Shown here piece by piece: positions 14,540 through 35,690 of a stretch of 64,000 nt of DNA. The notes under the pieces were generated by a model. That model was not told the origin of the DNA. It ran no database searches and saw nothing but the letters and a program-made list of their open reading frames with translations. Source of the DNA: Terriglobia bacterium (GTDB taxonomy: Bacteria > Acidobacteriota > Terriglobia > Bryobacterales > Bryobacteraceae); assembly GCA_963767595.1 (NCBI GenBank), contig CAVYEK010000021.1, forward strand, positions 33,658 to 97,657. Direction: 5' to 3'. Numbering within the stretch: the stretch's first letter is position 1; the number at the start of each line of letters is the position of its first letter. A program made the translations under genes and the position numbers.

Positions 14540-15020
14540 TCTGAACCTCGTACTGGCTGGTGGTCAGTTGCAGGACCGTGTCGAAGGAGATATGTTCGGG
14601 GGCCGGGTCCATCATCAGGAGGGCTTCGATGCGGAAGCGGAACGTGCGGGTGTTGGCGGCCAGCGGCTCGATCGGCACAACGCGCACCTTGGCCAGCCGG
14701 GGCTCAAAGAACTTCAAGGCGGACTGCAACTGGCGGGTCAGCTTGGTCTCGGCGGCGGCGGACCCCAGGTTGTATCCGGTGTAGTCCGGCAAGCCGTAGA
14801 CATAGACCGAGCGGTTGAGCTCGCGCAGTCCTTCGGGGGGTGGAAAGGCCACTTGCCGGGTATTGAGGAGCCATTCGAGATCGCGCCGCACGGCGTCGCG
14901 AAGCGCCCGGACGGACTGTGCGCGCGTGAGGGACGCTTCGCTCGAGATCCGCGGGTCGGCGTCGATCAGCCGATCGAACACCGACAAAGTGACCGCCGCA
15001 TCAGGACCGGGTGGGGGCAT
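14529..15020 (-). CDS. tssE: T6SS baseplate gp25-like protein TssE
   Basis: 163 aa from ATG 15020 (confirmed in sequence). 'SVFDRLID...DLEWLLNTR' is the GPW/gp25 signature. The longest ORF (to 15164) is a spurious extension into tssA. Confidence 0.9.
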   Translation of the reverse strand: MPPPGPDAAVTLSVFDRLIDADPRISSEASLTRAQSVRALRDAVRRDLEWLLNTRQVAFPPPEGLRELNRSVYVYGLPDYTGYNLGSAAAETKLTRQLQSALKFFEPRLAKVRVVPIEPLAANTRTFRFRIEALLMMDPAPEHISFDTVLQLTTSQYEVQNAG

Positions 15021-15022
15021 GG

Positions 15023-16813: not shown

Positions 16814-17510
16814 CGGAAGTGAACTCCAGCGACCGGACCTCCAGCAGCGGAACTTCCTCGCCATCCACGACGAACGTCTTCTGCCCCACGGGGAACTCGT
16901 GGCCGTCATCGTCGGCAACCCACTCGGTCGCGCGGCCCAGCCAAACCGACTCGTCGTCGGACTTCCACGAGAACGGATAGATTGCGGGAATCAGCACCTG
17001 CCCGATGTCGGTTCCTTTGAAGCTCGGACCGGTCAGGACGAAAGCGGGAGTCCACAGGGTATCGCGCAGGACGCGAGGAGGCGCGATTTGAACGGAGGCG
17101 ATATGCTCGAACGGGATCCACAGATAGGCGCCCGCCGCGTACAATTCCAGGCGCGAACCGATTGCGGGGTCCGCGTCGCTTATGGATTGAAACGGTTTGC
17201 CATTGAGCGTTCCCGGCGGGGACGCCGGCGCCGGGGCCTGGGGAAACTCCTGCTTCTGAAACATCGAATTGCGGGTCTTTTCGCCGTGCAGGGCGGAGTA
17301 GTAGAGCACCGCGCCCATTTCAGCTTCGGGGCTGCCCTTGGCCAAAACGCCCAACTGCTTCTCCGCGCGGTCGTACTGCCCGGAGAAGCAGAGGAGCTCG
17401 AAAAGAAACGTCCGCAACGCGGTGTCCGCGGGGTTGTCGCGGAGAGAGGCGCTGAGGGCTCTCTCCGCCTCCCGGACCTTCCCGGCATCGAGAAGTTCCT
17501 TGGCTTTCAT
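16800..17510 (-). CDS. tagJ: T6SS accessory protein TagJ (ImpE/SciE family)
   Basis: 236 aa. TPR-like N-terminus ('LLDAGKVREAERALSASLRDNPADTALRTFLFELLCFSGQYDRAEKQL') and an ImpE-like C-terminus. Sits between hcp and tssA. Confidence 0.8.
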   Translation of the reverse strand: MKAKELLDAGKVREAERALSASLRDNPADTALRTFLFELLCFSGQYDRAEKQLGVLAKGSPEAEMGAVLYYSALHGEKTRNSMFQKQEFPQAPAPASPPGTLNGKPFQSISDADPAIGSRLELYAAGAYLWIPFEHIASVQIAPPRVLRDTLWTPAFVLTGPSFKGTDIGQVLIPAIYPFSWKSDDESVWLGRATEWVADDDGHEFPVGQKTFVVDGEEVPLLEVRSLEFTSDATA

Positions 17511-17525: not shown

Positions 17526-18029
17526 TCAGAAATTCCCTGGCGCCGCGAAATCGGGCTTCAGCGTCGCAAGGTCGTAGCCCTTTCTGATCGCGGCATCGAG
17601 CGACCCGTCGTCTTTCTCCGGCTTGTAAGCGATCTCCACAGCCTCGAAAGCGAAACTGACCGACTCGGTGGGGTTCTCATGGCTGCCCGATAACTGTACC
17701 GAAGTGATGAGCACATCCTTGAGATAGATGCGGAAGTAGTCGTCCTGCTTGTCGCCGACCGGTTTGTCGTACATCAGGTAGGCGTCCATCAGGATGTCGC
17801 CGCTGGCGCAGTGATCGCACAGCAGCGGGGAGGTTTTATCCAGGACCTTCATGATGGTCAGGTTTGAAAAGTTGGCCCGTCCGGACTTGGCCTCCTTGCC
17901 GGATGCGCCGGCGCCATAAGTTGCCGTCTGGCTCACGCCCCAACTGAACGACAGGATGTCGATGGCCCCTGTCTTGCTTGAGCTTGGCCCTTTGATGCTG
18001 TCAATCACTAAATAAGCGTTTACAGCCAC
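17526..18029 (-). CDS. hcp: T6SS inner tube protein Hcp (TssD)
   Basis: 167 aa. 'AYLVIDSIKG...AIDILSFSWGVSQ' and overall Hcp1 length and pattern. GTG start with AAGGAG upstream. Confidence 0.95.
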   Translation of the reverse strand: MAVNAYLVIDSIKGPSSSKTGAIDILSFSWGVSQTATYGAGASGKEAKSGRANFSNLTIMKVLDKTSPLLCDHCASGDILMDAYLMYDKPVGDKQDDYFRIYLKDVLITSVQLSGSHENPTESVSFAFEAVEIAYKPEKDDGSLDAAIRKGYDLATLKPDFAAPGNF

Positions 18030-18090: not shown

Positions 18091-19578
18091 CTACTTGGCT
18101 GGCGCCGGCAGATCCGCCACCAGGCGCAGCGAAACCGTCAGCTCCTCAAGCTGGAAGTGCGGCCGCATAAAAGCGACGGCCCGGTAGCAACCCGGCTTCC
18201 CCGGAATTTCCGTCACATCCACGCGAGCTTCCCGCAACGGGCACCTGGCCTTCATCTGGGGCGACGCGGTGTCGTCGGGAACGACATATCGGGTAATCCA
18301 GCGATTCAGGAAGATCTCGGCGTCGGCGCGCGACATGAAACTGCCGATCTTGTCGCGCATCATGGCCTTCAGGTAGTGCGCGAAGCGCGAGATCGCCATG
18401 ATATAGGGAATTTGCGCCGACAAACGGGCATTGGCGTTCGCCGAATCGCTGTCGTACAGTTTCGGCTTCTGGCAGGATTGCACGCTGAAGAACGCGGCGT
18501 AGTCGGTGTCCTTGCAGTGCACCAGGGGCACGAAGCCGAGGTCCGCCAGCTCTTTCTCGCGCCGGTCGGTAATGGTCATCTCGGTGGGGCACTTCATCGC
18601 TACGTCGCCCTCATCGGTGTAGAAGTTGTGAACCGGCAGGCCGGTCACCAGGCCGCCCCCTTCCACGCCCCGCATGGCAACGCTCATGCCAAACTGCGTG
18701 AAGGAGTTGGTCATCCGCGAGGCCAGAGCGAAAGCCGCATTCATCCACAGATACTTCGAATGATCGGTTCCGTCCACGTGCTCTTCGTAATTGAAATCCT
18801 CCACCGGCTTGGTGTCCTTGCCGTAAGGCAGCCGGCCCAGGACGCGAGGCAGGGTGAGGGCCACGTAGCGGGAATCTTCCGACTGGCGGAAACCCTTCCA
18901 CTTGGCGTACTCCGTGGTGTCCAGGATCTTCGCCAAGTCGCGCGGAGCGTCCAGGGCGGTCCAGGACGGCAAGTTGAGTATGTCGCAACTGGCCGCCGTG
19001 CAGAAAGGCGCATGAGCGGCCGCCGCCACATGGGAAATCTGGTCCAACAATTCGATGTCCTCGGGGTGCTTGCCGAATTCGTAGTCCCCCACCAGGGCGC
19101 CGAAGGGGGCGCCGCCGAAGACGCCGTACTCTTCCTCGTAAACTTTCTTGAACAGGGCGCTTTGGTCGAACTCCGGCGCGCGCTGCAAGTCCTTCAGCAG
19201 CTCCTTCTTGCCGCAGTTGAGGATGCGGATCTTGAGCATGGTTCCGGTTTCGCTCTGATCCATCAGGTACTTGACCCCGCGCCAGCTTGCTTCGAGCTTC
19301 TGGAACGAGGGGTGATGCATGATCTCGTTTAACTGGATCGATACCAGGTGGTCGATTTGCGCAATGCGGGCGTTGATCATCATCTCCGCATCGCGCGCGA
19401 TGGTCATGGAGCCTTCCAGAACCTGCGCCACGAACTCCTTCACCAGGTTCTTGCCGCGCTCGCGTGAAGCCGGCTCCATGCCAAAACGGCCTTCTTCCAC
19501 GATCTGGTCGAGCAGGCTCTTCTCCTGAACCTGTTCGCTGGCAGCCACCGAAGCCTGCGCGCTCTTTCGCTCAGCCAT
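18091..19578 (-). CDS. tssC: T6SS contractile sheath large subunit TssC
   Basis: 'HHPSFQKLEASWRGVKYLMDQ' is the TssC signature. ATG 19578 forms an ATGGCTGA overlap with the tssB stop. Confidence 0.95.
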   Translation of the reverse strand: MAERKSAQASVAASEQVQEKSLLDQIVEEGRFGMEPASRERGKNLVKEFVAQVLEGSMTIARDAEMMINARIAQIDHLVSIQLNEIMHHPSFQKLEASWRGVKYLMDQSETGTMLKIRILNCGKKELLKDLQRAPEFDQSALFKKVYEEEYGVFGGAPFGALVGDYEFGKHPEDIELLDQISHVAAAAHAPFCTAASCDILNLPSWTALDAPRDLAKILDTTEYAKWKGFRQSEDSRYVALTLPRVLGRLPYGKDTKPVEDFNYEEHVDGTDHSKYLWMNAAFALASRMTNSFTQFGMSVAMRGVEGGGLVTGLPVHNFYTDEGDVAMKCPTEMTITDRREKELADLGFVPLVHCKDTDYAAFFSVQSCQKPKLYDSDSANANARLSAQIPYIMAISRFAHYLKAMMRDKIGSFMSRADAEIFLNRWITRYVVPDDTASPQMKARCPLREARVDVTEIPGKPGCYRAVAFMRPHFQLEELTVSLRLVADLPAPAK

Positions 19579-20089
19579 TGCCGCCTCCCTTTCCAATCTC
19601 ATTCTTCAGCTTGTCCAGCTTCTCGGTGTTGCCGACGCTCTCCAGCAGCAATTCCTCCAGCTTGTCGTTGCCCTGCAAACTGCCGCGGAGATCGGAAAGT
19701 CGAGTCCGCAGATCGAGCAGTTCCTTGAGGGGCTTGACCTGGCGCGCCACATTTTGCGGGTCGAAATCTTCCAGTTTGGCGAACTTCAAGTCCACCTTGA
19801 GGTTAGCGGCCTCCGGTTCCTCGCTCAGCTTGTTTTCCACGGCAAAGTTGAGGTGAGGTTTCATGCCTTCCAGGACGGAGTCGAAGTTGTCCGGATTCAC
19901 CTCGACGAACTTGCGATCCTTTAGTCTGGGCAGAGGCTGCTCCGGCTGGCCGGTGAAATCCCCTAGTACCCCGACCACGAAAGGGAGTTCCTTCAATTCG
20001 ATCGCCCCGCCCACCTCGACGTCGTAGGTGATCTGTACGCGTGGGGAGCGTACCCGATCCAACTTATGTTGCGTACTTTCTCTGGCCAT
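19571..20089 (-). CDS. tssB: T6SS contractile sheath small subunit TssB
   Basis: 172 aa. 'SPRVQITYDVEVGGAIELKELPFVVGVLGDF' is the TssB/VipA signature. Confidence 0.95.
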   Translation of the reverse strand: MARESTQHKLDRVRSPRVQITYDVEVGGAIELKELPFVVGVLGDFTGQPEQPLPRLKDRKFVEVNPDNFDSVLEGMKPHLNFAVENKLSEEPEAANLKVDLKFAKLEDFDPQNVARQVKPLKELLDLRTRLSDLRGSLQGNDKLEELLLESVGNTEKLDKLKNEIGKGGGNG

Positions 20090-20242: not shown

Positions 20243-21709
20243 TCACACCAGCGCCAGACGGCGCTCCACCAGCTTGCGCATCACCGCGCAACACTGCTGG
20301 CGCGCCTGTTCCCGATCGACCTTGGCCGCCGCCGCGAGATCCTCCGCCAATTCGTTCAAGGTCCGGGCGCCGTCACATCCCCGCAGGAAGTCGGCCACCT
20401 GCGGATCGAGCGCCAGTGAGCTGGGGATGCCGCCGGTCCGCCTGAGTTGCATCGAGGATGCCTTCCACTCTCCGGCCACCAGACGCAACTGCTGGTCGAT
20501 GTACGTATCGGATGGCAGCCGCGGCTTCCAAGCCATCATTTGGTCCGTGGAACGGTCCGTTTCCAGCCTGTCCTGGTTGCCGAATAATTCCACAATGGAC
20601 TCGCCAAACGGTTCCGTAAAGTCCAGGTTGGACGCTTCCTCAATGCGTATCCAGTTCTTGCCGGACCTGCGCCGCATGGCCAGGATCCCGCCCTGGATCT
20701 CCTGGACGCCATGGGCGCGATAATAGTCCATCCATTGGTCGAACCGTTGGTTGGCGGTGATCGGCGAATACGGCATCATCCGGCCGATGCGTTCGGAGGC
20801 GTACGCGGCGGCCGAGCGCGCGTAGCTGCGGAGCACCCAGGCGTCGCAGCCCGTATCCTCCAGCCACTCCTTCAGGCGGTCCTGCCAGGACTGCCCGCTC
20901 ACCTGGACCCACTCGAAGGTCATCTGCAGGAAGCCGTCTTCGTTGAGGTAGCGCGGCGCCGTCCGGACGAGCTCTCGGCAGTAATCGTCCAATTCCATGC
21001 TGTTTTCGCAATATATCTGCCCCGTGGACGGGGTCACGAAGAACGGCGGGTTGCTGACGATCAGGTCGAACGTCCGGCCCTGGACGGGTTCGAAGGTGTC
21101 GCCGGTCAGGCAGTCCACGTTCTTTACGCCGTTGAGCCAGACGTTGAAGCGGGCAAACTCGGTGGCGCGCGGGTTCAAGTCGGTCGCTACCACCCGGCGG
21201 CTGTGATCCGACGCGAGGATGGCGAGGATCCCGCAGCCGGCGCCAAGATCCAGGGTTGCCCCGGAAGGGCGCCGGATGGCGAACATTTGGAGCAGGCGCG
21301 TGGAAGGATTGGGCCACAAGACCATCGCGGAGGATTCCGGCGACTCCAGCGTGCGGGCCGGATCGGCTGCGAACAGGAAGCGTTCGCATGGCGTCAGCAT
21401 GACCCTGGGGGTCAAGCGGGCCCCGTCGCGAACCAGCATTCCCGTTTCCAGCATCTGGGCAACCACCGGTTCCGGCACAAGCCCCGAGATGGACTCGCTC
21501 TCCAGCGGCACGCCCAGGAAGAACCAGCGCAACAAGACGTGCAACGTCGAGGGCGCGGAAATGCGTTCCAGGAGATCCGGCAGGTTGCCGAGGCGGCTCG
21601 ACGGAAGGTCGCCCAGCGCCGGGTCTTGCTTGAATTGCTCGTGAGTGAAGCCGGCCTCCCTGAAGAACTCGAGAAGCTGCCGTGGAGCGGGGCCAATAGG
21701 AGTGAGCAT
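20243..21709 (-). CDS. class I SAM-dependent methyltransferase (NPPF-type) with long N- and C-terminal extensions
   Basis: 488 aa. Motif I 'TLDLGAGCGILAI', acidic 'VVATDLNPRA', motif IV 'LIVSNPPFF'. The C-terminal ~60 aa ('LDPQVADFLRGCDGARTLNELAEDLAAAAKVDREQARQQCCAVMRKLVERRL') look winged-helix/PqqD-like. Confidence 0.8.
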   Translation of the reverse strand: MLTPIGPAPRQLLEFFREAGFTHEQFKQDPALGDLPSSRLGNLPDLLERISAPSTLHVLLRWFFLGVPLESESISGLVPEPVVAQMLETGMLVRDGARLTPRVMLTPCERFLFAADPARTLESPESSAMVLWPNPSTRLLQMFAIRRPSGATLDLGAGCGILAILASDHSRRVVATDLNPRATEFARFNVWLNGVKNVDCLTGDTFEPVQGRTFDLIVSNPPFFVTPSTGQIYCENSMELDDYCRELVRTAPRYLNEDGFLQMTFEWVQVSGQSWQDRLKEWLEDTGCDAWVLRSYARSAAAYASERIGRMMPYSPITANQRFDQWMDYYRAHGVQEIQGGILAMRRRSGKNWIRIEEASNLDFTEPFGESIVELFGNQDRLETDRSTDQMMAWKPRLPSDTYIDQQLRLVAGEWKASSMQLRRTGGIPSSLALDPQVADFLRGCDGARTLNELAEDLAAAAKVDREQARQQCCAVMRKLVERRLALV

Positions 21710-21897: not shown

Positions 21898-23259
21898 ATG
21901 CGAATGCGGCGATTGCAACCAGTGATCTGGACCAAGGGCACGTTTCTCACCCCCCAGCACCTGCAACTCCAGGATCGCTTTCTCGAAAGTCTCCTGGAGT
22001 TCCACCTGGACAGTCTTTCATTCCGTCCCTGGGGTTTCGCCACCCTGCAAATCAGCCGGGAAGCTCTCGCGGGCGGAGTATTCGGTATCGGCAGCGCGTC
22101 CGGGCTCCTGCCGGACGGGCTGATCTTCGATATACCCGGGGCCGACAGCGCCCCGCCGCCCAGGCAACTGATTGAGTGCTTCGAGAAGGATCAAACCACC
22201 CTTGACATGTACCTGGCCGTTCCGCAATACCGCGACCGGGGTCTGAACGTGGCCTCTTCCACGCGCGACAGCGGGGCCAGGTATCGCGCGGAAATCGAAG
22301 TGTTCCGCGACGAAACCACGGGCCTTTCGGAAAAGCCGGTCCAGGTGGCGCACAAGAATCTGCGCCTGCTGGTGGAAGGCGAGAATCGCGACGGCTGCTC
22401 GACCTTGCGCGCGGCCCGGGTCCAGCGCAGCGAAACCGGCGTTTTTCAACTGGACCCGGGTTTCGTGCCACCGTTGCTGGATTTCGCCGCTAGTGACCAC
22501 TTGGTTTCGATCGCGCGCCGTCTCGTGGAGCTTCTCACCGCGCGCTCCAGCGCCATCTCCGGAATGCGGCGGCAGAAGAACCAGAGCCTGGCGGATTTCA
22601 CCGCCGCCGATATCGCCAGTTTCTGGCTGCTCTACACCGTCAACACGGCCTTCCCGGTTCTCCGCCACTTATTCGAAACCCGTCGCGGGCACCCCGAGGC
22701 GCTTTATAACGCGATGCTCTCGCTGGCCGGAGCGCTCTCTACGTTTTCCACGGAAGTCCACCCGCGCGACCTGCCGGCGTACGATCACGACAATCTGGGC
22801 GTCTGCTTCACGGACCTGGACGAGAAACTGCGCACGCTGCTCGAAACCGTTGTGCCTACCAATATCGTGTCGCTGCCGCTGAAACTGGTCCAGCCGGCGA
22901 TCTACGCCACCTCCCTCGACAACGAGAAGTACCTGGTGAATACCCGGATGTACTTGGCGGTGAGCGCTGAAACCAGCCAGGCGGAGATCGTGGGCAAGAC
23001 GCCGCCACTGGTCAAAGTGTGTTCGGCGAGCCACATCGACCACCTGGTGCGGCAGGCGCTGCCCGGTGTTCCGCTGACTTACGTTGCGGCCCCGCCCAGC
23101 GCAATTCCGGTCAAGTTGAACCACCAGTATTTCAGCCTGAGCCAGTCCGGCCCCGCGTGGGAAGCCGTGCTGCGTGCCCGCAACCTGGCCGCCTACGTCC
23201 CCGCGGACCTGCCCAACCCGCAACTCGAGCTGATCATTCTGCTGCCGCAAGCGGGGTAG
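21898..23259 (+). CDS. tssK: T6SS baseplate protein TssK (paralogue 1)
   Basis: 453 aa. 'PVIWTKGTFLTPQHLQLQDRF' is the TssK N-terminal signature, and the protein is collinear with the second copy. Start is ATG 21898 or 21904, with no SD. Confidence 0.9.
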   Translation: MRMRRLQPVIWTKGTFLTPQHLQLQDRFLESLLEFHLDSLSFRPWGFATLQISREALAGGVFGIGSASGLLPDGLIFDIPGADSAPPPRQLIECFEKDQTTLDMYLAVPQYRDRGLNVASSTRDSGARYRAEIEVFRDETTGLSEKPVQVAHKNLRLLVEGENRDGCSTLRAARVQRSETGVFQLDPGFVPPLLDFAASDHLVSIARRLVELLTARSSAISGMRRQKNQSLADFTAADIASFWLLYTVNTAFPVLRHLFETRRGHPEALYNAMLSLAGALSTFSTEVHPRDLPAYDHDNLGVCFTDLDEKLRTLLETVVPTNIVSLPLKLVQPAIYATSLDNEKYLVNTRMYLAVSAETSQAEIVGKTPPLVKVCSASHIDHLVRQALPGVPLTYVAAPPSAIPVKLNHQYFSLSQSGPAWEAVLRARNLAAYVPADLPNPQLELIILLPQAG

Positions 23260-23272
23260 GGCCTCGTTAGTG

Positions 23273-23471
23273 TAGTGGGGCGTAAGAACTGCCCATTATC
23301 CATTGCCAGCCAATCATCGCGCTCGATCCGTAGAGCGGGCTTCCAGCCTGCCATGCCGGCGTCCTCGCCGGCATTCTTCGAGGAATGCCGGTACGGATAC
23401 CGGCATGGCAGGCTGGAAGCCCGCTCTACGGCGCTCTCGATAATGCGCATCATTTGCGCTGCGGACCACTA
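23273..23471. repeat. composite palindromic element: two inverted copies of a ~90-100-nt structured unit filling the tssK1/Pro-rich-gene convergent gap
   Basis: Perfect 32-bp inverted repeat 23328-23359 / 23400-23431 (ccgtagagcgggcttccagcctgccatgccgg). Inner 9-bp hairpin at 23368-23391. The outer ends begin TAGTGG (23273 on plus; 23471 on minus, where TAG is the stop codon). A third copy lies at 38742-38833. Confidence 0.6.
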
Positions 23472-25025
23472 GCGCCGCATTAGCAGAAACACCACAAGAC
23501 CGCCTGCCAGAAACATCAGCAGCCCTACAATTGCCAACAGCAGGACGTTGGTGGAAGGCGCCTTGACCGGCGCCGGCGGGGGCATGGAGTACTGCGGCGC
23601 CGGCATGGAGTATTGCGGCGCCGGCGGCGGGGGCATGGAGTATTGCGGCGCCGGTGGCGCCGGCATGGAGTACTGCGGCGACGGCAGACCGGGAATCGCG
23701 GGTTGCGCCACGCCTGGGATCGGGGGCGCATTGGCTTGCGGCATCGCGGGCGTGCTCGCGATCTGAGGCATGTGCGGATACCCGGGCGCCGGGGGCGTGG
23801 CGGGAGCGCCGGCGCCCGGGGTCGGGGGAACCGACATCAGGAGAGTGTACTCACTGGGACCCTGCTGCACGCCGGGTGCCTGACCCGGCTGCGGCGGCGA
23901 TGGAATCGCAAACGCCTGGGTCGCGCCAGCCGGTCCGGCATGGCGTGGCGCGGGCGGCGGAGCCGACCACGATCCCGGGGCGGACGGGAACCCGGACGCC
24001 GCCGGCAAAAGCGGTCCTTCGGTTCCCGGGGGCTGGGCCTGAAAGAGCCGCGTGAATTCGCCCCCTTGTGGACGGCTCGCGGGCTCCGGCACGGGCGGCG
24101 ATGGCGACTGAAACATGCGAGTAAATTCGCCGGCCGGGGCTGGGGACGGCGCTGGAGGCGGCCAATCCCCCGTTGACGGCGAAGACGGCAGGGGAGATTG
24201 ATAAAACACCCGCGTGAACTCTCCGGGCGAACCGGAAGCCGCCGGAGGCTGCGGAGGCGGCGCCGGCTCGGCCATCGGCGCGGCCGGGGCCTGAAACAAT
24301 CGGGTGAACTCTCCCGGCGTCGATTCCGCTGGCGGAGGCGCCGGCAGCGGACTCGCCGGCGATGCGGCAGAGTGCGGCAGCGTTGCAACCTGCGCGGCCG
24401 GGGCCTGAAACAATCGGGTGAATTCTCCCGGCTGCGGTTCGGCCGGCCCCGCAACAGGCGCCGCGGCGACCGGTGGAGGAGCGGGCGGCTCGGCCGGGGA
24501 CTGAAACAGTCGCGTAAACTCTCCCGGCTCGGAATCGACCGGTGACGGCTCGCCCGGCGGCGCCATCATCGGGCCGGCGGGCATCGGCATCGGTTCCTGG
24601 AACCTGCCGGCGAATGCGGTGGGCGGTACGGCCGGCGCGGGCGCGGCTGGGGGCCCGGGAGATGGCGGCTCCGCGGGCGGCTTGAACGTAGGAACCTTCC
24701 ACACGCCCGCGCGACTCAGTTTCTGAGCCTCCATCGCCGCGTGTTCCTGGTCCTTGAGCCACTCCAACAAATGCTGAAAGGGCGGGGCAGCCGTCACAAC
24801 GTACTGCGTCCCTTCGCTATCGTTCCCGAGTTCGAGCATCCGGGCCAGCGAGATCGGCGGAAGAGCGCGCAGCCTGGCCAGAATCCTCTCGTTCTCCGGA
24901 GTCTGCCCTTGCGCCAAGAAATGGACGCTCACAGCCCGCCCGGAGCTTCTCTGCCGAGCCCGGAAGCTCTTAGGGCCTTCACCAGGCAGTGGTTCGATCA
25001 ACTCGTACTTTTGATGGACGTCCAT
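23469..25025 (-). CDS. tail-anchored proline-rich repeat protein with a degenerate kinase N-lobe-like N-terminus
   Basis: ORF 23469..25067; ATG 25025 has GGAG upstream. Six 'GEFTR(L/M/V)F' motifs and four 'PQYSMP' motifs. C-terminal TM 'VLLLAIVGLLMFLAGGLVVFLLM'. The N-terminal 'YELIEPLPGEGPKSFRARQRSSGRAVSVHFL' resembles Hanks subdomains I-II but lacks the Gly-loop and the Lys. Confidence 0.7.
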   Translation of the reverse strand: MDVHQKYELIEPLPGEGPKSFRARQRSSGRAVSVHFLAQGQTPENERILARLRALPPISLARMLELGNDSEGTQYVVTAAPPFQHLLEWLKDQEHAAMEAQKLSRAGVWKVPTFKPPAEPPSPGPPAAPAPAVPPTAFAGRFQEPMPMPAGPMMAPPGEPSPVDSEPGEFTRLFQSPAEPPAPPPVAAAPVAGPAEPQPGEFTRLFQAPAAQVATLPHSAASPASPLPAPPPAESTPGEFTRLFQAPAAPMAEPAPPPQPPAASGSPGEFTRVFYQSPLPSSPSTGDWPPPAPSPAPAGEFTRMFQSPSPPVPEPASRPQGGEFTRLFQAQPPGTEGPLLPAASGFPSAPGSWSAPPPAPRHAGPAGATQAFAIPSPPQPGQAPGVQQGPSEYTLLMSVPPTPGAGAPATPPAPGYPHMPQIASTPAMPQANAPPIPGVAQPAIPGLPSPQYSMPAPPAPQYSMPPPPAPQYSMPAPQYSMPPPAPVKAPSTNVLLLAIVGLLMFLAGGLVVFLLMRR

Positions 25026-25117
25026 GAGCGCTCCGCTTCCCTGTAACATCGTACCGCGCCGGCTCAAAGTGAGCGCTGCACCGAGCGGCTTATGCTACCC
25101 TAATCCGGAGCGGGCTT

Positions 25118-26470
25118 ATGAACGTGCTATCGAGGGTGGTATGGTCTGAAGGCATGTATCTGGGGCCACACCATTTCCAGGTTCAGAGCCGCTATTTCGA
25201 AGATTCTATTCAGTTCGCCACCTCGACCCTGTGGTTCTCTTCGTACGGTCTGGCGGGTGTGGATCTCGATGCCGAAGCGCTCCAAAATGGCACCGTTTCG
25301 CTGCTCCATGCGCGGGGGATTTTCCGCGACGGCCTGACCTTCCACATGCCCGAAAGCGATGCGCTGCCGGAGCCACGGGCCGTCGCCGACCTGTTTCCCC
25401 CCACCCACGACGGCATTGTCGTGCTGCTCGCGATTCCACCGCGCAAACCCAACGGCTTCAATTGCTCGCTGCCGGACGGGGAGATCGCGGAGGCCCGCTA
25501 CACCGCCGAACCGCGCGTCCTGCGCGACGAAAATACCGGCGCCGACGAGCGCACCGTGCATCTCGGCCGCAAGAACCTGCGCCTGTTGTTCGATACCGAG
25601 CCGGCCGGCGACCTGCTCACCATGCCCATCGCGCGCGTGGTGCGGGGCGGCGCCGGCCACTTCGCCTACGACGCCAATTTCGTCCCGCCGGTGCTGGGGA
25701 TTTCCGCCTCCACCCGGCTCATGCTCCTGGCGCAGCGCCTCATCGAAATCCTGGACGACAAGAGCGCCGCCATCGGCCGCGGCGCGCGCAACGCCTCCGG
25801 CGGGCCGGCGGAGTTCTCCACGCGTCAGATAGCCAGCTTCTGGCTGATGCATGCCGTGAATTCCGCCTTGACGCCGCTGCGTCACCAGTTCATCGCCAAG
25901 CGCGGCCATCCCGAAGAGCTGTTCGTCGAGATGTCGCGCCTCGCCGGCGCCCTGTGCACCTTCGCCCTCGATTCGCACCCGCGCGACCTGCCGCTGTACG
26001 ATCACGACAACCTGAGCGTTTGCTTCGAGGAACTCGACCGCCACATTCGCGCGCACCTGGAAATCATGGTTCCCACCAACTGCATTTCCATTCCGCTGAA
26101 ACGCGCGGAGGATTACTACTACGAAGGCGACATCGCGGACCAGCGCTGCCTGGGCCGTTCGCGGTGGCTGCTGGCCATCCGCGCCCGAATGGGCGACGCC
26201 GACCTGATGGCCAAAGCCCCGGCGCTCATCAAGGTCTGCAGCCCGGCCTTCGTGCGGGAACTCGTGAAACGGGCCCTCCCCGGCATGCCGCTGATTCATC
26301 TTCCGGCGCCGCCGCCGGCGGTTTCCGCCCGGCTGGAAACGCAATATTTCGGTCTGAGCAAGGGCGGCCCCTGCTGGGACAACATGAGCGCGACGCGCAA
26401 GGTGGGAGTCTACGTTCCCGGTGAGTTTCCCGATCCCGAAATTGAGATTTTAGTCGTGCTGGAGAACTGA
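25118..26470 (+). CDS. tssK: T6SS baseplate protein TssK (paralogue 2), first gene of tssK-tssL-tssM
   Basis: 450 aa. 'RVVWSEGMYLGPHHFQVQSRYFE'. GGAG RBS. Confidence 0.9.
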   Translation: MNVLSRVVWSEGMYLGPHHFQVQSRYFEDSIQFATSTLWFSSYGLAGVDLDAEALQNGTVSLLHARGIFRDGLTFHMPESDALPEPRAVADLFPPTHDGIVVLLAIPPRKPNGFNCSLPDGEIAEARYTAEPRVLRDENTGADERTVHLGRKNLRLLFDTEPAGDLLTMPIARVVRGGAGHFAYDANFVPPVLGISASTRLMLLAQRLIEILDDKSAAIGRGARNASGGPAEFSTRQIASFWLMHAVNSALTPLRHQFIAKRGHPEELFVEMSRLAGALCTFALDSHPRDLPLYDHDNLSVCFEELDRHIRAHLEIMVPTNCISIPLKRAEDYYYEGDIADQRCLGRSRWLLAIRARMGDADLMAKAPALIKVCSPAFVRELVKRALPGMPLIHLPAPPPAVSARLETQYFGLSKGGPCWDNMSATRKVGVYVPGEFPDPEIEILVVLEN

Positions 26471-26471
26471 T

Positions 26472-27176
26472 ATGACCCCTTCGGCGAATATCCGCGGGCC
26501 GGAAAACCTGCCGCTCATTTTCCAGGAAGTTTTCACGGCCATCGAACGGCTGCGCTCGAATCGCCAGGGCGTCGCCGATTCGCAGTCTTTCCGGTATCAC
26601 ACCCGCGAGGCGCTAAAGACCGCCGCCGGCCAGGCAATGGCCGCCGGTTATTCACCCGACGACGTCAAGTTCGCCACCTTCGCCACGGTCGCGTTCCTGG
26701 ATGAATCCGTCCTCAATTCGCAGAACCCCGTTTTCACCGACTGGCTCCGCAAGCCGCTTCAGGAGGAGCTGTTCGGTACTCACATCGCGGGCGAGGTCTT
26801 CTTTCAGCATTTGCAGGCACTCCTCGGCCGAAACGATTCCGCCGACCTCGCCGATGCGCTCGAGGTCTACTATCTTTGCCTGCTGCTCGGTTTCGGAGGG
26901 CGCTACAGCGCGGGCAATCGCGGAGAACTGGCGCAGGTCATGAGCCTCGCCGCGGAGAAGATCCGCCGCATCCGCGGCCCGTTCGGGCCGCTTTCCCCCG
27001 CCTGGATGCTCCCCCAGGAACGTGTGGTCACCCGCTCGGACCCGTTGGTGCGAAAGCTGGGCTTTCTTGCCCTGGCGTGTGCGATATCGATGGCGCTGCT
27101 CTTCGGCGGCTACAAGGTCGCCCTTGGTTCGGGAGTGTCCGACGTTCGGGCCATCGCCGTTCCCGCTCAACAATAG
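26472..27176 (+). CDS. tssL: T6SS membrane-complex protein TssL (DotU family), no OmpA/peptidoglycan-binding extension
   Basis: 234 aa. 'ALEVYYLCLLLGFGGRYS' is the DotU signature. Single C-terminal TM 'LGFLALACAISMALLFGGY'. Confidence 0.9.
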   Translation: MTPSANIRGPENLPLIFQEVFTAIERLRSNRQGVADSQSFRYHTREALKTAAGQAMAAGYSPDDVKFATFATVAFLDESVLNSQNPVFTDWLRKPLQEELFGTHIAGEVFFQHLQALLGRNDSADLADALEVYYLCLLLGFGGRYSAGNRGELAQVMSLAAEKIRRIRGPFGPLSPAWMLPQERVVTRSDPLVRKLGFLALACAISMALLFGGYKVALGSGVSDVRAIAVPAQQ

Positions 27177-27185
27177 GAGGTCTGC

Positions 27186-30100
27186 GTGACCGTTCTTTAC
27201 ATCTTGCTCGCGGTGGCGCTGGTGGCGCTGATCGTCCTGGTCGTTCTTTTCTTCGTAAAGAAGAAGAAAGCCGAGGCCGCCGCCAATCAGCCGGGCGGAC
27301 CCGCGGGTTTCGGCGAAGATGAGATTTCGCTGCTGGTGCGCGCCGCCGAAGCCAGGCTCTCCGCCGCCAAGCTCGAACAGGGCGCCAGGATCGCCAACCT
27401 GCCGGTTTATATTCTGATGGGCCAGTCCGGCAGCGCCAAGACCAGCGTCATGATTCACTCCGGTCTCGATCCCGAACTGTTGGCCGGCCAAGTCTATCGG
27501 GATGCCAGCGTCGCGCCCACCCGGGCCGCCAACCTGTGGTTCTCACGGCGCAGCGTCTTCGTCGAGGCGGGCGGCGCCTTGTTGGCGGACCCGAGCCAAT
27601 GGAACCGTTTGGTCCGCGGACTGCAGCCGCGCTCCTCCGTGGTCGGCAAAGGCGGGCAGGCGCCGCGCGCGGCGGTGGTGTGCTTTGACAGCGAGACCTT
27701 CACCCGCGCCGGCGCGCAGGAAGCCGTGGTGAACGCCGCTCGTGTTTTGCGGGCCCGTCTGGGCGAGATCTCCCAGGCGCTCGGCGCCAATCTCCCGGTC
27801 TACGTGCTGTTCACCAAGATGGACCGGCTGCCGTTCTTTGCCGAGTACGTGCGGAACCTGAGCAACGACGAGGCCACCCAGGTGCTCGGCGCGACTCTCC
27901 CCCTCCTCACCGGCCGCACGGAAGGCGTGTACGCCGAAGAGGAGACCGCGCGCCTGAGCGGCACGTTCGAGCGGCTGTTCCGATCGCTGGCGGACGCGCG
28001 GCCGGAGTTCCTGGCGCGCGAGACCGACCCCGCGAAGCTGCCCGCCACCTACGAGTTTCCGCGCGAGTTCCGCAAGATTCGCCCCGCCGTGGCGCAGTTT
28101 CTGGTGGAGTTGTGCCGGCCCAGCCAGCTAAGCGTGGGGCCTGTTCTGCGCGGATTCTACTTCACCGGCGTGCGGCCGATCCTGGTCAACGAAACCGCCC
28201 CGGTCGCCGCGGCGGCGCCGCCGCGGCAGGCCGCCTACGGACCGGCCGCCGGCGCCACCGGCATCTTTCGGGCGGGCGCCCTGGCGCCGGCCGCACATGC
28301 CGCGCCGCCGCAGGCGGGCGTCACTCGCAGGGCGCCGCAATGGCTCTTTCTCAGCCACCTGTTCGCGGATGTTCTCCTTTCCGACCGGGCCGCCATGGGC
28401 GCCAGCGGGGCCAGCGTCAGGACGAGTTTCGCGCGCCGCGTGCTGTTCCTCGCGGCCGCCGCGCTGTGCCTGGCGCTCTCCATCGCCTTTACGGTTTCGT
28501 TCTTCCATAACCGCGGCCTGGAAACACGCGTGCGCACGGCCGCGCGGGGCGCCGCGGACGCCGGCGTGGCGGGCGCAGATCTCGCGCCCCTCGACAGTCT
28601 GCGGAAACTGGAGGCGCTTCGCCAGTCGCTCGAGTCCCTGCTCCAGTACCGGCGTGAAGGCGCTCCAATGTCTTACCGCATGGGCCTGTATGTCGGCGAC
28701 GATCTCTATCCGGAAGCGTGGCGCGTTTATTTCGGCCGCTTCCGCCAGGTGCTGTTCGCGCAAACGCTGGACAGCGTCCTGCAAGGGCTGCGCGGCCTGC
28801 CCGCAACCCCGGGGCCGGAGTACGGCCCCACCTACGACGCGCTGAAGGCCTATCTGATCGCCACCTCCCGCCACGAGCACAGCACCAGCCAGTTTCTTTC
28901 GCCGGTTCTGATGAAGTGGTGGGCCAATGGCCGCGCCATCGATCCGGAACGCCAGCAGCTCGCCCAGAAGCAATTCGATTTCTACTCCGGCGTACTCAAG
29001 GAAGAGAATCCGTACTCGGAAGCGAACGACGCCGGCTCGATCGAGAAAGCGCGCCGATATCTGACCCAGTTCGCCGGGGCCGAGCGGGTCTACGCTTTCA
29101 TGCTGTCCGAAACCGGTAAGCGCGTCCCGTCCATCGACTTCAATCGCCAGTTCGCCGGCTCGGCCCAAGTGGTGTTGGAGACGTACGAAGTGCCCGGCGC
29201 GTTTTCCAAGGGCGGCTGGGCTCTGATGAAAGACGCCATCCAGCACGCCGACCGGTACTTCAGCGGCGAGCAGTGGGTCCTCGGCGACCAGGCTTCCGCC
29301 AACATCGATCGCGCCAAGCTGGAGCAGGATCTGCGCGCCCGCTACAACGCCGATTTCGTGCAGCGCTGGCGGACCTACATCAAGTCGGCCTCGGTGGTCC
29401 GCTACGCCGGTCTGGCGGACGCTTCCCGGAAGTTGATCCAACTTTCCGGCAACCAGTCGCCGCTGCTGGAGCTGTTGGCGCTGGCATCGCAGAACACGGC
29501 GGTGGACGATCCGGATGTGGCGTCGGTGTTTCAGCCGGTACAGACCGTGGTCCCGCCGGGGAGCACGGACCGGTACATTCTGCCGCCCAACCAGAACTAT
29601 GTCAACGCGCTGGTCACGCTGCAGGCCTCTCTCGAAGCGATTGCCGGCCAGGGTGGAACCCCCGCCGATGCGGCGGCGGCTCCGGTGCTGGCCAACGCCG
29701 TTCAGGCCAAGATCACCACGCGCCAGATGGCACAGTCCTTCCGCATCGATTCCGAAGGCCACATCGAGGGTCAAGTGCAGAAGCTGCTGGAAGATCCCAT
29801 CGTCTACGTGGAAGGCATGCTGCGCGCGCTCGGCCCGGCGGAGTTGAATGCCAAGGGTAAGGCGCTGTGTGGACAGTTCCGCCCGGTGTTGGCCAAGTAT
29901 CCGTTCAACCCCAACGCCACCGTGGAAGCCACCGTGGTGGACGTCAATGGCCTCCTGCGCAAGCCCGATGGGGCCCTCTGGAGTTTCTACGACCAGAACC
30001 TGCAGAAGCTGCTGGTCAAACAGGGATCGCAGTTTGCGATCGGTCCCGCGGGGGGCGTGAACCCGGCTTTCCTCACCTTCTTCAACGCCGCCGCGGCGTT

Positions 30101-30557
30101 ATCCGACGCGATCTACGCCGGCGGCGCGCAGGACCCGCACTTCGTTTACACGCTCAAGGCGGAACCTTCGGAGGGCATTCAGACGGTGAACCTGGAGGTT
30201 GACGGGCAGAGGCTCAGCTACTCGGGCGGCGCGGCCACGCCCAAGCAGTTCAATTGGCAGGGAGGCGGAGCGCACGGCGCCAAGGCTTCGGTCAAGTTCG
30301 GCGGTCCGGAAATCACATTCTCGGAGCACGAGGGCATCTGGGCGGTGTTCCACTTCTTCAACAAGGCCGACCGTTGGACTCCCGCCGGCGCCGGCCAATC
30401 CCTCGAATGGATCATCCGCGCCGGAAAGGATCCGATGAAGCTGCCCAACGGAAAACCTCTCACCGTCCACTTCGAACTCGACATGGGCGGCGCGCCGGCG
30501 GTCTTCCAAACCGGTTATTTCTCGCGCCTCGCCTGCGTGGCGGACGTTGGGCGGTAG
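27186..30557 (+). CDS. tssM: T6SS membrane-complex protein TssM (IcmF family)
   Basis: 1123 aa. N-terminal TM, Walker A 'LMGQSGSAKTS', a second TM pair near residue 400 and a large IcmF-like C-terminal domain. GTG start with AGGAGG upstream. Confidence 0.95.
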   Translation: MTVLYILLAVALVALIVLVVLFFVKKKKAEAAANQPGGPAGFGEDEISLLVRAAEARLSAAKLEQGARIANLPVYILMGQSGSAKTSVMIHSGLDPELLAGQVYRDASVAPTRAANLWFSRRSVFVEAGGALLADPSQWNRLVRGLQPRSSVVGKGGQAPRAAVVCFDSETFTRAGAQEAVVNAARVLRARLGEISQALGANLPVYVLFTKMDRLPFFAEYVRNLSNDEATQVLGATLPLLTGRTEGVYAEEETARLSGTFERLFRSLADARPEFLARETDPAKLPATYEFPREFRKIRPAVAQFLVELCRPSQLSVGPVLRGFYFTGVRPILVNETAPVAAAAPPRQAAYGPAAGATGIFRAGALAPAAHAAPPQAGVTRRAPQWLFLSHLFADVLLSDRAAMGASGASVRTSFARRVLFLAAAALCLALSIAFTVSFFHNRGLETRVRTAARGAADAGVAGADLAPLDSLRKLEALRQSLESLLQYRREGAPMSYRMGLYVGDDLYPEAWRVYFGRFRQVLFAQTLDSVLQGLRGLPATPGPEYGPTYDALKAYLIATSRHEHSTSQFLSPVLMKWWANGRAIDPERQQLAQKQFDFYSGVLKEENPYSEANDAGSIEKARRYLTQFAGAERVYAFMLSETGKRVPSIDFNRQFAGSAQVVLETYEVPGAFSKGGWALMKDAIQHADRYFSGEQWVLGDQASANIDRAKLEQDLRARYNADFVQRWRTYIKSASVVRYAGLADASRKLIQLSGNQSPLLELLALASQNTAVDDPDVASVFQPVQTVVPPGSTDRYILPPNQNYVNALVTLQASLEAIAGQGGTPADAAAAPVLANAVQAKITTRQMAQSFRIDSEGHIEGQVQKLLEDPIVYVEGMLRALGPAELNAKGKALCGQFRPVLAKYPFNPNATVEATVVDVNGLLRKPDGALWSFYDQNLQKLLVKQGSQFAIGPAGGVNPAFLTFFNAAAALSDAIYAGGAQDPHFVYTLKAEPSEGIQTVNLEVDGQRLSYSGGAATPKQFNWQGGGAHGAKASVKFGGPEITFSEHEGIWAVFHFFNKADRWTPAGAGQSLEWIIRAGKDPMKLPNGKPLTVHFELDMGGAPAVFQTGYFSRLACVADVGR

Positions 30558-30671: not shown

Positions 30672-32318
30672 CTAGTTGCCCAGAAAACCCTCCAGCTTCG
30701 AAACCTCGCGCTCGGCGAGGTCGAGATTCCGCTTGGCCGCCTGTGCGTCGCCATTCTTGAGAGCCGCCTTGGTCTCGTCGAGGTAGTTCTCCATCCGCTG
30801 CGCCGAGGCGGCCATGTCGGCTCGCAGCCCAAGTCCCGAACGGGCCTGCTGGCTGCGCAGGTTATCCAGGCTGGTCTTGACGGTTCGGGCGCGCACATCG
30901 AGAAGCGCGAACTGCTCCCGGGCTTCTCTCAACTGCGCACTTTGTGTTGCCGCCGCCCCGGCCGCCGCGGCGGACGGCCGCGAAGCCTGCACGGGAGCCG
31001 CCTCGGTGGACTGTGAAACAGGCTGTTGCGCGGGCGGCGGGAACTGCTCAGCGGGCGGCGGAGCCACCGGCTGAGAGGAGTTTCGCGGAATTCCACGACG
31101 CGGCGACTGAGCGGCCACCGAAGGCCTCGCCGCGGCGGGGTTCCCGGCGGGCGCGGGCGCGGGCGCGGGCGCCGCGGGAGTCTCGCTCGCCGGCTCCGCG
31201 GCCGCGGGGCTCGAGGCCGGTGGCTGCGCAACCACCGCCGGCGCCGCCGTGGGCGGAACGCCCTCCGCGGTAGCATGGCGAAACTTCGGGATCTGCATCG
31301 CCACCACCACCAGCACGCCGAGGGTCACCAGCGATCCCAGCGCGATCCAAAGACCACGGTGGCTGCTCGCCGCCGGAGGAGGCGGAGGAGCAGCCACGGG
31401 TGCTGCCACGGGAACTGCCTCGGGAGCCTGCGCCGGGGCGGCCATCGGGGCTGTTTGTGAGACGGGAGCGGGAGGAGGCGCAACGGCCGCCTGCCCCGGC
31501 TTGCTCACCGAGAGCAACGCGGAACGCATCGCATCCGCCGTCTGGAACCGCTTCGCGGGATCCTTTTCGAGGGAGAGCAGAATGATCTCGCTCAGCGCCG
31601 GTGGCAGGTTCGGCGCGACCTGAATCGGCGGCGGCGGGTTGGCCTGCAGGTGCGCCGACATGATGGAGTACTCGCTATCTCCCTGGAACGGCCGCGCGCC
31701 GGTGCACACTTCGTAAAGCGAAACGCCCAGCGAATACAGGTCCGAGCGCGCGTCGAGATCCAGACCGCCCTTGATCTGCTCGGGCGACATGTAGTACAAA
31801 GACCCCACCGTCTGCCCGGTCTGCGTCAGCTTGCGGTCCTGTTGCATCCTGGCGATGCCGAAGTCCATCAGTTTCACGACGCCGTCAGCCGTGATCATCA
31901 TGTTCGCCGGCTTGAGGTCGCGATGGATTACGCCGCGAGCGTGGGCGTAAGAAAGCGCCGAAAGCACCTGCGTCATGTAGTCCACGGCCTGGCCGATCGG
32001 AATCGGGCCGGCCGCCATCAGGTTCTCCAGCGTGACGCCTTCGACGAACTCCATCAGCATCAGCAGTTGATTCTCGATTCGGAGCGCCGTGTGCAACACC
32101 GCGATATTGGGGTGATCGAGACTGGCCTGCACCTTGATCTCCCGCATGAAGCGGTTGGCGAGATCGGGATCGCCGTCCAGATCCGGAAGCAGCACCTTCA
32201 TCGCTTCGACACGTTCGGAAATGACATTCCGGACCTTGTAGACGCGACCCATGCCGCCGGCGCCGAGAATCTGTAGAACCTCGTAATCGCCGACGCGCGA
32301 ACCTACTTCGTAGTTCAT
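30672..32318 (-). CDS. membrane Hanks-type Ser/Thr protein kinase (PpkA-like position next to tssM)
   Basis: 548 aa. 'LGAGGMGRVYKV', 'VEAMKVL', 'HRDLKPANMM', 'DFGIARM' and 'GSLYYMSPEQ' are all intact. Pro/Ala linker, one TM ('LWIALGSLVTLGVLVVVAM'), a second Pro-rich linker and a ~110-aa helical extracytoplasmic C-terminus. Confidence 0.9.
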   Translation of the reverse strand: MNYEVGSRVGDYEVLQILGAGGMGRVYKVRNVISERVEAMKVLLPDLDGDPDLANRFMREIKVQASLDHPNIAVLHTALRIENQLLMLMEFVEGVTLENLMAAGPIPIGQAVDYMTQVLSALSYAHARGVIHRDLKPANMMITADGVVKLMDFGIARMQQDRKLTQTGQTVGSLYYMSPEQIKGGLDLDARSDLYSLGVSLYEVCTGARPFQGDSEYSIMSAHLQANPPPPIQVAPNLPPALSEIILLSLEKDPAKRFQTADAMRSALLSVSKPGQAAVAPPPAPVSQTAPMAAPAQAPEAVPVAAPVAAPPPPPAASSHRGLWIALGSLVTLGVLVVVAMQIPKFRHATAEGVPPTAAPAVVAQPPASSPAAAEPASETPAAPAPAPAPAGNPAAARPSVAAQSPRRGIPRNSSQPVAPPPAEQFPPPAQQPVSQSTEAAPVQASRPSAAAAGAAATQSAQLREAREQFALLDVRARTVKTSLDNLRSQQARSGLGLRADMAASAQRMENYLDETKAALKNGDAQAAKRNLDLAEREVSKLEGFLGN

Positions 32319-32534
32319 GAGAAGCTCCTCTCAGTCGACTCCCGCCTTGCTCCCAACCCCGAGCTCCCGCCCCAATTCATTATAGTTTGCGATTACAGGT
32401 TGCGATACGCCCATTTCCCCTTCCGCGGCAGGCCGGCGCAAGGGGAGTGGCCAGCCGAGACTTCCTCCGCCCGGCGGCCGCCACTTCAGCCGCTTGCCCG
32501 GACGGGCGACCGAGACAGCAGCTATACTGATCCG

Positions 32535-35538: not shown

Positions 35539-35608
35539 GATGCAATCTCCTTTCGATTCAGAGTGGGAAACCCGAAAACACCTTCGGCGCATGGCCGACG
35601 GCGGGCCT

Positions 35609-35660
35609 ATATTTACTATGCGCGGCGGGTATTGCAATAACATGACGGGAAGATTGCAAT
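35609..35660 (-). promoter_or_regulatory. candidate pstS promoter/operator: two ATTGCAAT palindromes 22 bp apart, the proximal one overlapping a -35-like TTGCAA
   Basis: ATTGCAAT at 35631-35638 and 35653-35660. On the minus strand, TTGCAA is followed 16-17 nt later by TAAATAT. Confidence 0.35.
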
Positions 35661-35690
35661 TCGATGAGTTGGCCAGCGCCCCGAACCGTG

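Follow-up and report, generated by a model that had tools for sequence, protein, structure and literature searches.

The stretch of DNA analysed here (the window, 64,000 nucleotides of contig CAVYEK010000021.1 from a Terriglobia bacterium) carries a complete type VI secretion system (T6SS) cluster, as judged from Pfam scans of its open reading frames (ORFs). Within this cluster, on the minus strand at 23469..25025, lies a gene whose product of 518 amino acids (plus stop) combines a pseudokinase head made of a kinase N-lobe only, an array of short linear motifs (SLiMs) and a predicted tail anchor; the product is referred to below as the GEFT protein. As the preliminary description of this DNA had it, the gene is flanked by two tssK genes, both matched by TssK (PF05936; E 1.9e-138 and 4.1e-128). 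One encodes TssK1, the second TssK paralogue, and is convergent with the gene (21898-23259, +; Pfam and synteny). The other encodes TssK2 (25118-26470, +) and is followed by the genes for TssL (26472-27176, +) and TssM (27186-30557, +). This tssK2-tssL-tssM operon (25118..30557, +; Pfam and synteny) is taken as the invariant neighbour of the family gene and is separated from it by a divergent intergenic region of 92 bp (25026..25117), presumably a bidirectional promoter, the divergent layout being found in 46 of 48 loci of the same subclade.

The start codon had to be moved. The ORF reported previously, 23469-25067 (-), is present in the sequence and had been given a TTG at 25067 as its start, which lies 14 codons further 5' than an ATG at 25025 (MDVHQKYEL...). 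Because a GGAG lies 7 nt upstream of this ATG and full-length homologues begin there with MD(V/F)(H/Y)QKYEL, i.e. M-D-[VF]-x-Q-K-Y-E-L, the true start is almost certainly the ATG at 25025 and the protein one of 518 amino acids, so that the earlier residue numbers are 14 too high. Residue numbers given here count from ATG 25025 unless marked as earlier numbering (+14).

Head, motif array and membrane anchor

Pfam and NCBIfam scans gave no match to the protein, and no description of it or of its motif was found in the literature, either by full-text searches for motif strings or under the topics of pseudokinases, tail-anchored proteins and the T6SS. A word-indexed search returned 290 relatives; no functional name is attached to any of them, nor does any show a Pfam domain on the same architecture. 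Where sources were named these were Acidobacteriota, mostly Bryobacteraceae, and the N-lobe was present in 119 of the 120 first-round matches listed. An exhaustive profile search of 1.84 billion representatives yielded 810 clusters at E<=1e-10 and 1588 at E<=1e-3, the size of the family, counted as 50%-identity clusters, being at least 810. All 34 of the new full-length representatives had two or more motifs and 29 of them a C-terminal transmembrane (TM) helix. The three-part architecture of head, motif tail and anchor is constant across this family, which is mostly from Acidobacteriota. Both its large size and a minority of paralogues that are not linked to a T6SS had been overlooked in the preliminary description.

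The head (residues 1-105; 24711..25025, -) is a remnant of a kinase N-lobe, with strands β1-β3, helix αC, strands β4-β5 and then a long helix, an assignment on which three independent tests agree. A profile built from 45 diverse N-terminal domains of the family was compared with all PDB sequences, and its 20 best matches were MARK-family kinases, in register from β1 to the hinge (E 0.005). Profile-profile comparison (hhalign) with an alignment of 13 kinases encoded in related T6SS clusters gave 93.4% probability and E 2.5e-7 over 90 columns, with YVVT on the hinge. The AlphaFold2 (AF2) model of the head shows the topology β1-β3/αC/β4-β5/helix, with a predicted local distance difference test score (pLDDT) of 83 when the domain is modelled by itself and ~95 when it is part of the whole protein, and when searched against PDB with Foldseek its top 50 matches were all protein-kinase N-lobes, at a query-normalised TM-score (TMq) of ~0.5. 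Pfam Pkinase did not match the query protein at E<=0.01.

The catalytic residues have been lost. The preliminary description had recognised a dead kinase N-lobe by eye, citing PGEGPKSF (28, earlier numbering) and VSVHFL (46, earlier numbering), both of which are located there, and profile, profile-profile and fold searches now bear it out. The invariant β3 Lys of active Hanks kinases (PF00069) is missing: in both the PDB profile alignment and hhalign, His35 occupies the VAIK Lys position, which among 265 family members is His in 91%, Phe in 8% and never Lys. The Gly-rich loop departs from GxGxxG, the segment reading PGEGPKS here and R/P-D/G-D/E-G-V-K-T in the family, and no C-lobe, HRD catalytic loop or DFG was found, the fold ending after helix 86-105, where a Pro-rich disordered region begins. 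With no C-lobe and no ATP-binding or catalytic residues, the head is, to judge from its sequence, without enzyme activity and can only be a protein-protein interaction module.

The disordered Pro/Ala-rich region that follows is ~380 amino acids long (residues ~110-490, AF2 pLDDT 45-65). Straight after the N-lobe comes a first linear motif, SRAGVWKVP (24690..24716, -; consensus [FL]x[RK][AV]GxW[KR][VI]P), in which G107 and W109 hardly vary and P112 does not vary at all within the subclade (broad alignment A1 and subclade alignment A2). Motif scans place next a degenerate motif-like element, FAGRFQEP (24591..24614, -; 152 in the earlier numbering), and then six GEFTR[LVM]F motifs in the linker (24042..24524, -). 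The single copies lie at 24504-24524, 24408-24428, 24294-24314, 24204-24224, 24111-24131 and 24042-24062 (-) and occur at the residues claimed for them, GEFTRLF at 182, 214, 252 and 336, GEFTRVF at 282 and GEFTRMF at 313 (earlier numbering); a motif peptide reads EPGEFTRMFQAP. Chance falls far short of explaining six exact copies of a motif of 7 residues. Intragenic duplication had been proposed from a 41-nt direct repeat, 24278-24318 and 24392-24432, which is indeed 40/41 identical; it belongs to a 74-nt unit that is present four times (62-100% identity), and on this ground we consider that the array grew by intragenic duplication.

Across 686 motif instances in the family the consensus is E-P-G-E-F-T-R-[ML]-F-Q-[AS]-P, 12 residues, with Gly conserved in 90%, Glu (-2) in 94%, Phe in 93%, Arg in 81% and Phe at +3 in 84%, while the motif Thr is found in 99% as against Ser in 1%. 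Copies, of which this protein has 6-7, are usually 4-8 in number (range 1 to 12) and are spaced by a median of 39 residues. No GEFT motif was found outside the gene family in ~1.9 million six-frame residues from 60 related loci and the window, and when the motif array was used by itself as the query, nearly all matches were fragments of family members and no second architecture came up. The one exception is a metagenome protein of 688 amino acids, P0079, in which a TIR domain stands instead of the N-lobe and, together with an unknown domain of ~200 amino acids, precedes the GEFT array, the AT.xF...GPSEYT module described below, PQ repeats and a tail anchor. Because P0079 carries the same tail behind a TIR domain, the disordered tail is a portable unit, with a partner that is probably independent of the head.

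Nearer the membrane lies the module GATQAF...GPSEYTLLM (residues 367-397; 23835..23927, -). Its SEYTLLM (405, earlier numbering) had been dismissed as a degenerate copy of the motif, a view that does not hold, as Thr394 within it is the only invariant motif residue in an alignment of 51 full-length sequences. The use of this module (upstream AT.xF plus SEYT, AT.xF...GP[SG]E[YF]T) as a mark of T6SS-linked members was considered and dropped after a direct check showed it to be family-wide. Four PQYSMP repeats (23580..23678, -; 464-491, earlier numbering) follow by the membrane, homologues having looser PQ[FY]x[MV]P repeats. In the full-length AF2 model one-turn helices form on three GEFT motifs. 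Docking of the motifs onto the N-lobe in cis was rejected, since these helices are of low confidence and the monomer shows no ordered docking, the contacts not having been inspected.

The single C-terminal TM helix (23475..23549, -) is supported by hydropathy, AF2 (helix 493-517, pLDDT ~95) and homologues. It contains the sole strongly hydrophobic 19-mer of the protein, at ~508-530 in the earlier numbering, followed by RR and the stop, and the N-terminus, MDVHQKYELIEPL, is without a signal peptide, the only hydrophobic segment being C-terminal. A TM helix with 1-4 mostly basic residues after it ends 100 of the 120 homologues, the remainder being mostly truncated calls. With a single TM helix within ~30 residues of the C-terminus and no N-terminal signal, the protein has the sequence features of a tail-anchored protein, and we infer an N-in topology with the anchor in the inner membrane and the bulk cytoplasmic, in line with what had been suggested.

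Linkage to T6SS genes, kinases and other neighbours

The subclade alignment A2 was used to scan one genome per GTDB species, which gave 48 subclade loci, nearly all from metagenome-assembled genomes of Bryobacterales, Solibacteraceae or other Terriglobia. At 46 of them genes for a TssK2-type protein and TssL (and TssM where the contig extends) lie directly upstream and divergent; the two unlinked loci, L027 and L030, lie among unrelated genes (MacB-like permease, S41 peptidase, histidine kinase). Of 12 diverse members, 9 showed the same divergent tssK-tssL-tssM arrangement, among them proteins that share only 29-35% identity with the query and whose clusters are otherwise rearranged. The other three lie elsewhere, the contexts of unlinked paralogues including Fe-ADH, a MacB-type permease and other genes. 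The preliminary description had staked its proposal on an enrichment of homologues beside T6SS genes, and this enrichment is massive. By conserved linkage the gene qualifies operationally as a T6SS-associated gene (Tag), its contribution to T6SS activity being a prediction.

TssK1 and TssK2 are ~40% identical to each other, whereas each is 53-92% identical to its own orthologues (50+ loci), and by this measure the two are ancient paralogues; 26 loci have the downstream TssK1-type gene, while ~10 lack it within 10 kb. We speculate that TssK1 and TssK2 may fill two non-equivalent TssK-trimer positions of the baseplate wedge. The remaining genes of the cluster, all on the minus strand, encode VgrG (7054-8931), ClpV (8982-11672), TssG (the C-terminal part of ORF 11682-14129, about 11682-12700), TssF (12698-14539), TssE (14529-15164), TssA (15023-16918), TagJ/ImpE (16800-17510), Hcp (17526-18029), TssC (18091-19602), TssB (19571-20089) and a HemK-like methyltransferase (20243-21709). 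Neither FHA nor TssJ was found by Pfam among the window ORFs scanned, and the Pfam tables of 12 annotated loci contained no FHA domain; the earlier remark that the locus has a Hanks kinase and no FHA protein was therefore correct as far as these scans reach. A regular expression for the FHA signature found nothing in the window and 60 loci, a weak negative as it was run without a positive control.

The Hanks kinase of the window, a Ser/Thr kinase with one TM helix (30672..32318, -; Pfam), is convergent with tssM and is a candidate kinase for the motif Thr. Kinase linkage is recurrent: a kinase domain is encoded within 3.5 kb beyond tssM in 17 of the 46 loci with TssM (~40%), mostly starting ~20 nt past the tssM stop on the same strand, with L059 a further case that has two kinases. 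Eleven of the 13 aligned kinases form one conserved orthologue group (ARIGKYELEEFLGGGMSHVYRARDTVIGRTVAVKILT...), also present in distant lineages, and kinases of this group adjoin tssM in L017, L019, L023, L025, L026, L028, L029, L031, L032, L042, L043, L050, L053, L056, L057 and L059; some tssM-linked kinases carry an FGE-sulfatase ectodomain. The window kinase is of a different type from this conserved orthologue and has a close relative in L015. The conserved group, co-operonic with tssK-tssL-tssM, resembles a PpkA analogue without PppA, TagF or Fha alongside. The closest relatives have in this place, after tssM, a fused VipA and VipB gene for a second sheath-like protein of 458-468 amino acids (L001 3081-4457, -; L052 891-2297, -; and the equivalent position in L004-L013); it is not in the window, where the kinase stands instead.

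Two phosphatases of the SpoIIE/PP2C type (44389-47136, + and 48960-50534, +), of which one has PDZ and GAF domains, lie 14-20 kb from the T6SS cluster; no other Ser/Thr phosphatase was seen in the window. The HemK/PrmC-like methyltransferase at 20243-21709 (-) consists of a PF05175 MTS domain and a DUF7782/PqqD-like C-terminus. Its homologues were found by tblastn in ~20 of 60 loci (for example L001 12949-14415, L053 9664-11127 and L059 10163-11680), and in L053 and L059 the gene comes immediately after the N-lobe/GEFT gene, with the same orientation; the conserved Gln in GEFTRMFQ is a candidate target of this enzyme. At the cluster edge, divergent from the Hanks kinase, a protein with TPR and GT41 (O-GlcNAc-transferase-like, OGT-like) domains is encoded (32400-34427, +; E 3.8e-84). 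O-GlcNAc on the motif Thr was considered on account of this gene and set aside, as tblastn found no homologue of it in related loci. The ORF antisense to it (32331-32870, -; 179 amino acids) is Arg-rich, has no family match and was taken as spurious.

Towards the other end of the cluster a DUF4280 (PAAR-like) gene (6639-7067, +) adjoins that for VgrG, and several sizeable ORFs without a Pfam match (4750-5721, -; 870-1994, +; 2073-3515, +) may be effector or immunity genes. Past the cluster lie genes for PstS (34516-35694, -), a hybrid histidine kinase (35691-38702, -) and an OlsF-like ornithine-lipid synthase (38831-40660, -), probably unrelated housekeeping or phosphate-response functions. 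A second Hanks kinase with a PD40 beta-propeller (55828-58551, -) adjoins an extracytoplasmic function (ECF) sigma factor (58627-59247, -), with a DDE transposase further downstream (60195-61358, -).

Proposed role and rival explanations

We propose that the GEFT protein is a previously undescribed T6SS-associated accessory protein of Acidobacteriota, acting as a membrane-tethered multivalent scaffold and probable phospho-acceptor, and assign this reading a probability of roughly 45%. A scaffold role taken by itself is likely; phosphorylation of the motif Thr is more tentative, at somewhat less than even odds. Held by its C-terminal anchor in the inner membrane, with all else facing the cytoplasm, the protein would stand beside the TssL/TssM membrane complex, where the multivalent tether would scaffold a putative cytoplasmic partner during docking of the baseplate (TssK). 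The Hanks kinase that is often encoded after tssM would phosphorylate the motif Thr, the array may then act as a graded phospho-switch, and the pathway would constitute an FHA-less variant of PpkA-Fha1 or PpkA-TssL threonine phosphorylation.

The case for a phospho-acceptor is built on the almost absolute use of Thr over Ser, on the Glu at -2 and the large hydrophobic residue at +3, and on T6SS and pseudokinase precedents. The flanking residues resemble those of PknA-dependent phospho-Thr sites, upstream acidic residues and Leu/Val at +3 being enriched around such sites in Mycobacterium tuberculosis (PMC7164672). PpkA phosphorylates TssL on Thr14, which is then read by Fha, and also phosphorylates Fha1 (PMC3953482), while EssB is a membrane-anchored pseudokinase scaffold in secretion and the pseudokinase MviN is phosphorylated by PknB (PMC3526858). 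Several observations weigh against the proposal. A kinase is adjacent in only ~40% of loci and that of the window is not of the conserved tssM-downstream type; neither a PP2C phosphatase nor an FHA or other known phosphothreonine reader was found within the T6SS cluster; and the AF2 monomer is without ordered motif docking. Three of 12 diverse and 2 of 48 subclade members lie off the T6SS yet keep the same motif, and the partner may therefore be a general cell component and not a T6SS protein. The strict Thr could be structural, as a beta-branched residue or helix cap, and not a phospho-site, the predicted phosphorylation is argued circumstantially, from motif composition and kinase synteny, and any binding partner is hypothetical.

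One alternative dispenses with phosphorylation: the GEFT motifs could bind the head domains of TssK1/TssK2 or the cytoplasmic domains of TssL/TssM, so that the tail-anchored array concentrates or captures baseplates at the membrane complex and the Thr is a mere contact residue. Such a tether would fit the place of the gene, which lies between two ancient TssK paralogues and almost always diverges from tssK-tssL-tssM; it would also fit the lack of an adjacent kinase at ~60% of loci and the scans in which no FHA reader was found. The motifs, moreover, are short helix-prone SLiMs with Pro flanks, as docking peptides typically are, and a multivalent array would match a baseplate of 6-fold symmetry. 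We nevertheless hold it doubtful, as paralogues outside the T6SS retain the motif, the same array in TIR-headed P0079 points to a generic partner, and a residue that merely makes contact would not usually be Thr so strictly (99%, with nearly no Ser). An emphasis on the head leads elsewhere. Back-to-back N-lobe dimerisation activates PknB-type kinases, and the head, which has kept the N-lobe fold of a kinase and no more than that, could pair with the N-lobe of a real Hanks kinase as a regulator or decoy, switching it allosterically or docking it to its substrate, with the array secondary. Two family positions that putatively match the PknB Arg10/Asp76 dimer-interface pair are highly conserved (K/R before the YEL strand in 88%; E/D-x-G in β4 in 92% and 96%), and the tssM-downstream kinases have matching K-YEL and Y-D-F-G-E elements. 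The kinase of the window has neither residue (D-YEV, HTALR), a kinase is adjacent in only a minority of loci, the head is exchangeable, as seen in the TIR variant, and conservation of a 4-12-copy array would be left unexplained, which together make this explanation unlikely.

It seems quite improbable that the protein is a general membrane-associated disordered protein that organises the envelope or cytoskeleton, for instance, has no T6SS role of its own and owes its position to a vertically inherited accident. Paralogues in unrelated contexts (Fe-ADH, MacB-type permease and others) and the lack of a match to any T6SS family model speak for it, but the position is kept across lineages at 29-35% identity in clusters otherwise rearranged, the 92-bp divergent control region is shared with tssK2, and linkage in 46/48 and 9/12 cases is far above the share of the genome taken up by T6SS genes, by rough estimate well under 1%. 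More adventurous is a self-contained phospho-switch without FHA. Basic positions are conserved on the former ATP-phosphate-binding face of the head (K19, K/R 72%; R24, R/K 89%; R30, R/K 88%; H35, 91%), and such a patch could read GEF-pT-RMF on neighbouring molecules, giving kinase-driven head-to-tail clustering; the multivalent clusters would form a two-dimensional condensate on the inner membrane that nucleates or positions T6SS baseplate assembly. This is a long shot; were it true, the patch would be a new phosphothreonine-reading module derived from half a kinase, and the clustering a new way of assembling a contractile secretion system. A T6SS effector, immunity protein or cargo adaptor is what a linked, unannotated gene with variable repeat number might suggest, and we give this almost no credence: the gene is set among core tssK, tssL and tssM and not beside VgrG/PAAR, its product is predicted to be tail-anchored in the producer's own inner membrane and has no toxin domain, and its position is conserved across distant lineages, unlike that of effector/immunity cassettes.

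Returning to the phospho-regulated scaffold, the accessory and regulatory parts of the T6SS have, to our knowledge, been worked out almost entirely in Proteobacteria, and here a large unannotated family sits at the heart of the membrane-complex/baseplate block of acidobacterial T6SS clusters in which TssJ and Fha were not found. If the proposal is true, threonine-phosphorylation control of the T6SS would have been built without an FHA reader, and an 'N-lobe-only' class would be added to the bacterial pseudokinases. The 12-residue motif with its near-invariant Thr is readily tested with peptides. A Pfam/NCBIfam model of its own and a Tag designation would also be warranted for the family, and would improve the annotation of T6SS in soil metagenomes.

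Comparison with known systems

It had been suggested that the protein could replace Fha or TssJ-type functions. The TssJ part falls on topology, because TssJ is an outer-membrane lipoprotein and the GEFT protein is predicted to be cytoplasmic with a C-terminal inner-membrane anchor; it has no signal peptide or lipobox and no match to SciN (PF12790). The Fha part fails as a literal replacement, there being no FHA domain; at most the protein would mimic the disordered phospho-acceptor half of Fha1. Among the core components, TssL/DotU is likewise a tail-anchored inner-membrane protein that lies mostly in the cytoplasm, and its gene belongs to the same block, although the GEFT protein has no DotU domain by Pfam, is largely disordered and has a kinase-derived head.

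Hanks receptor kinases (PknB-like, PpkA-like and tssM-linked) share with it a homologous N-lobe and the order of head, Pro-rich juxtamembrane linker and single TM helix; the GEFT protein lacks the C-lobe, HRD, DFG, VAIK Lys, Gly-loop and ectodomain, and its linker has been expanded into an array. MviN (MurJ) of M. tuberculosis is, like it, a bacterial membrane-attached pseudokinase. MviN is phosphorylated by PknB and then bound by FhaA, and is thus a phospho-Thr substrate and scaffold for a Hanks kinase. Its pseudokinase is, however, complete, with both lobes, and is joined to a polytopic flippase, and it has one FHA-read phospho-site, whereas the GEFT protein has an N-lobe only and a repeat array, and no FHA partner for it was found in the scans described above.

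In EssB/YukC of the type VIIb system (PMC3526858), as is inferred for the GEFT protein, an inert kinase-fold module at the cytoplasmic membrane face serves as an interaction scaffold. EssB, which is bilobal, has its TM helix in the middle of the protein, carries an extracellular domain and lacks a SLiM array, in contrast to the single lobe, tail anchor and long disorder of the GEFT protein, and the two belong to different secretion systems in different phyla; no EssB/YukC chain was present among the PDB sequence matches at E<=10 or the top 50 Foldseek matches. A further parallel is Fha1/TagH with PpkA-PppA, as known from Pseudomonas aeruginosa and, in the form PpkA-TssL(pT14)-Fha, from Agrobacterium (PMC3953482). 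Like the GEFT gene, this is an accessory gene by tssK-tssL-tssM with a linked Hanks kinase, both proteins have a long Pro-rich disordered region bearing Thr, and TssL in that system illustrates that a tail-anchored inner-membrane T6SS protein can be a phospho-acceptor. The GEFT protein differs from Fha1 in having a kinase N-lobe head in place of an FHA domain (PF00498) and no Pfam/NCBIfam match, in its many acceptor-like motifs as against a single site, in being membrane-anchored where Fha1 is soluble and in that its phosphorylation is putative only; its cluster, unlike PpkA-PppA clusters, has no PppA or TagF. A head made of an N-lobe only, joined to 4-12 copies of a SLiM and a tail anchor and encoded at a fixed place between TssK paralogues, is a new combination, these features not having been described together, and its components resemble known ideas, namely the pseudokinase scaffolds of secretion systems and the control of the T6SS by threonine phosphorylation.

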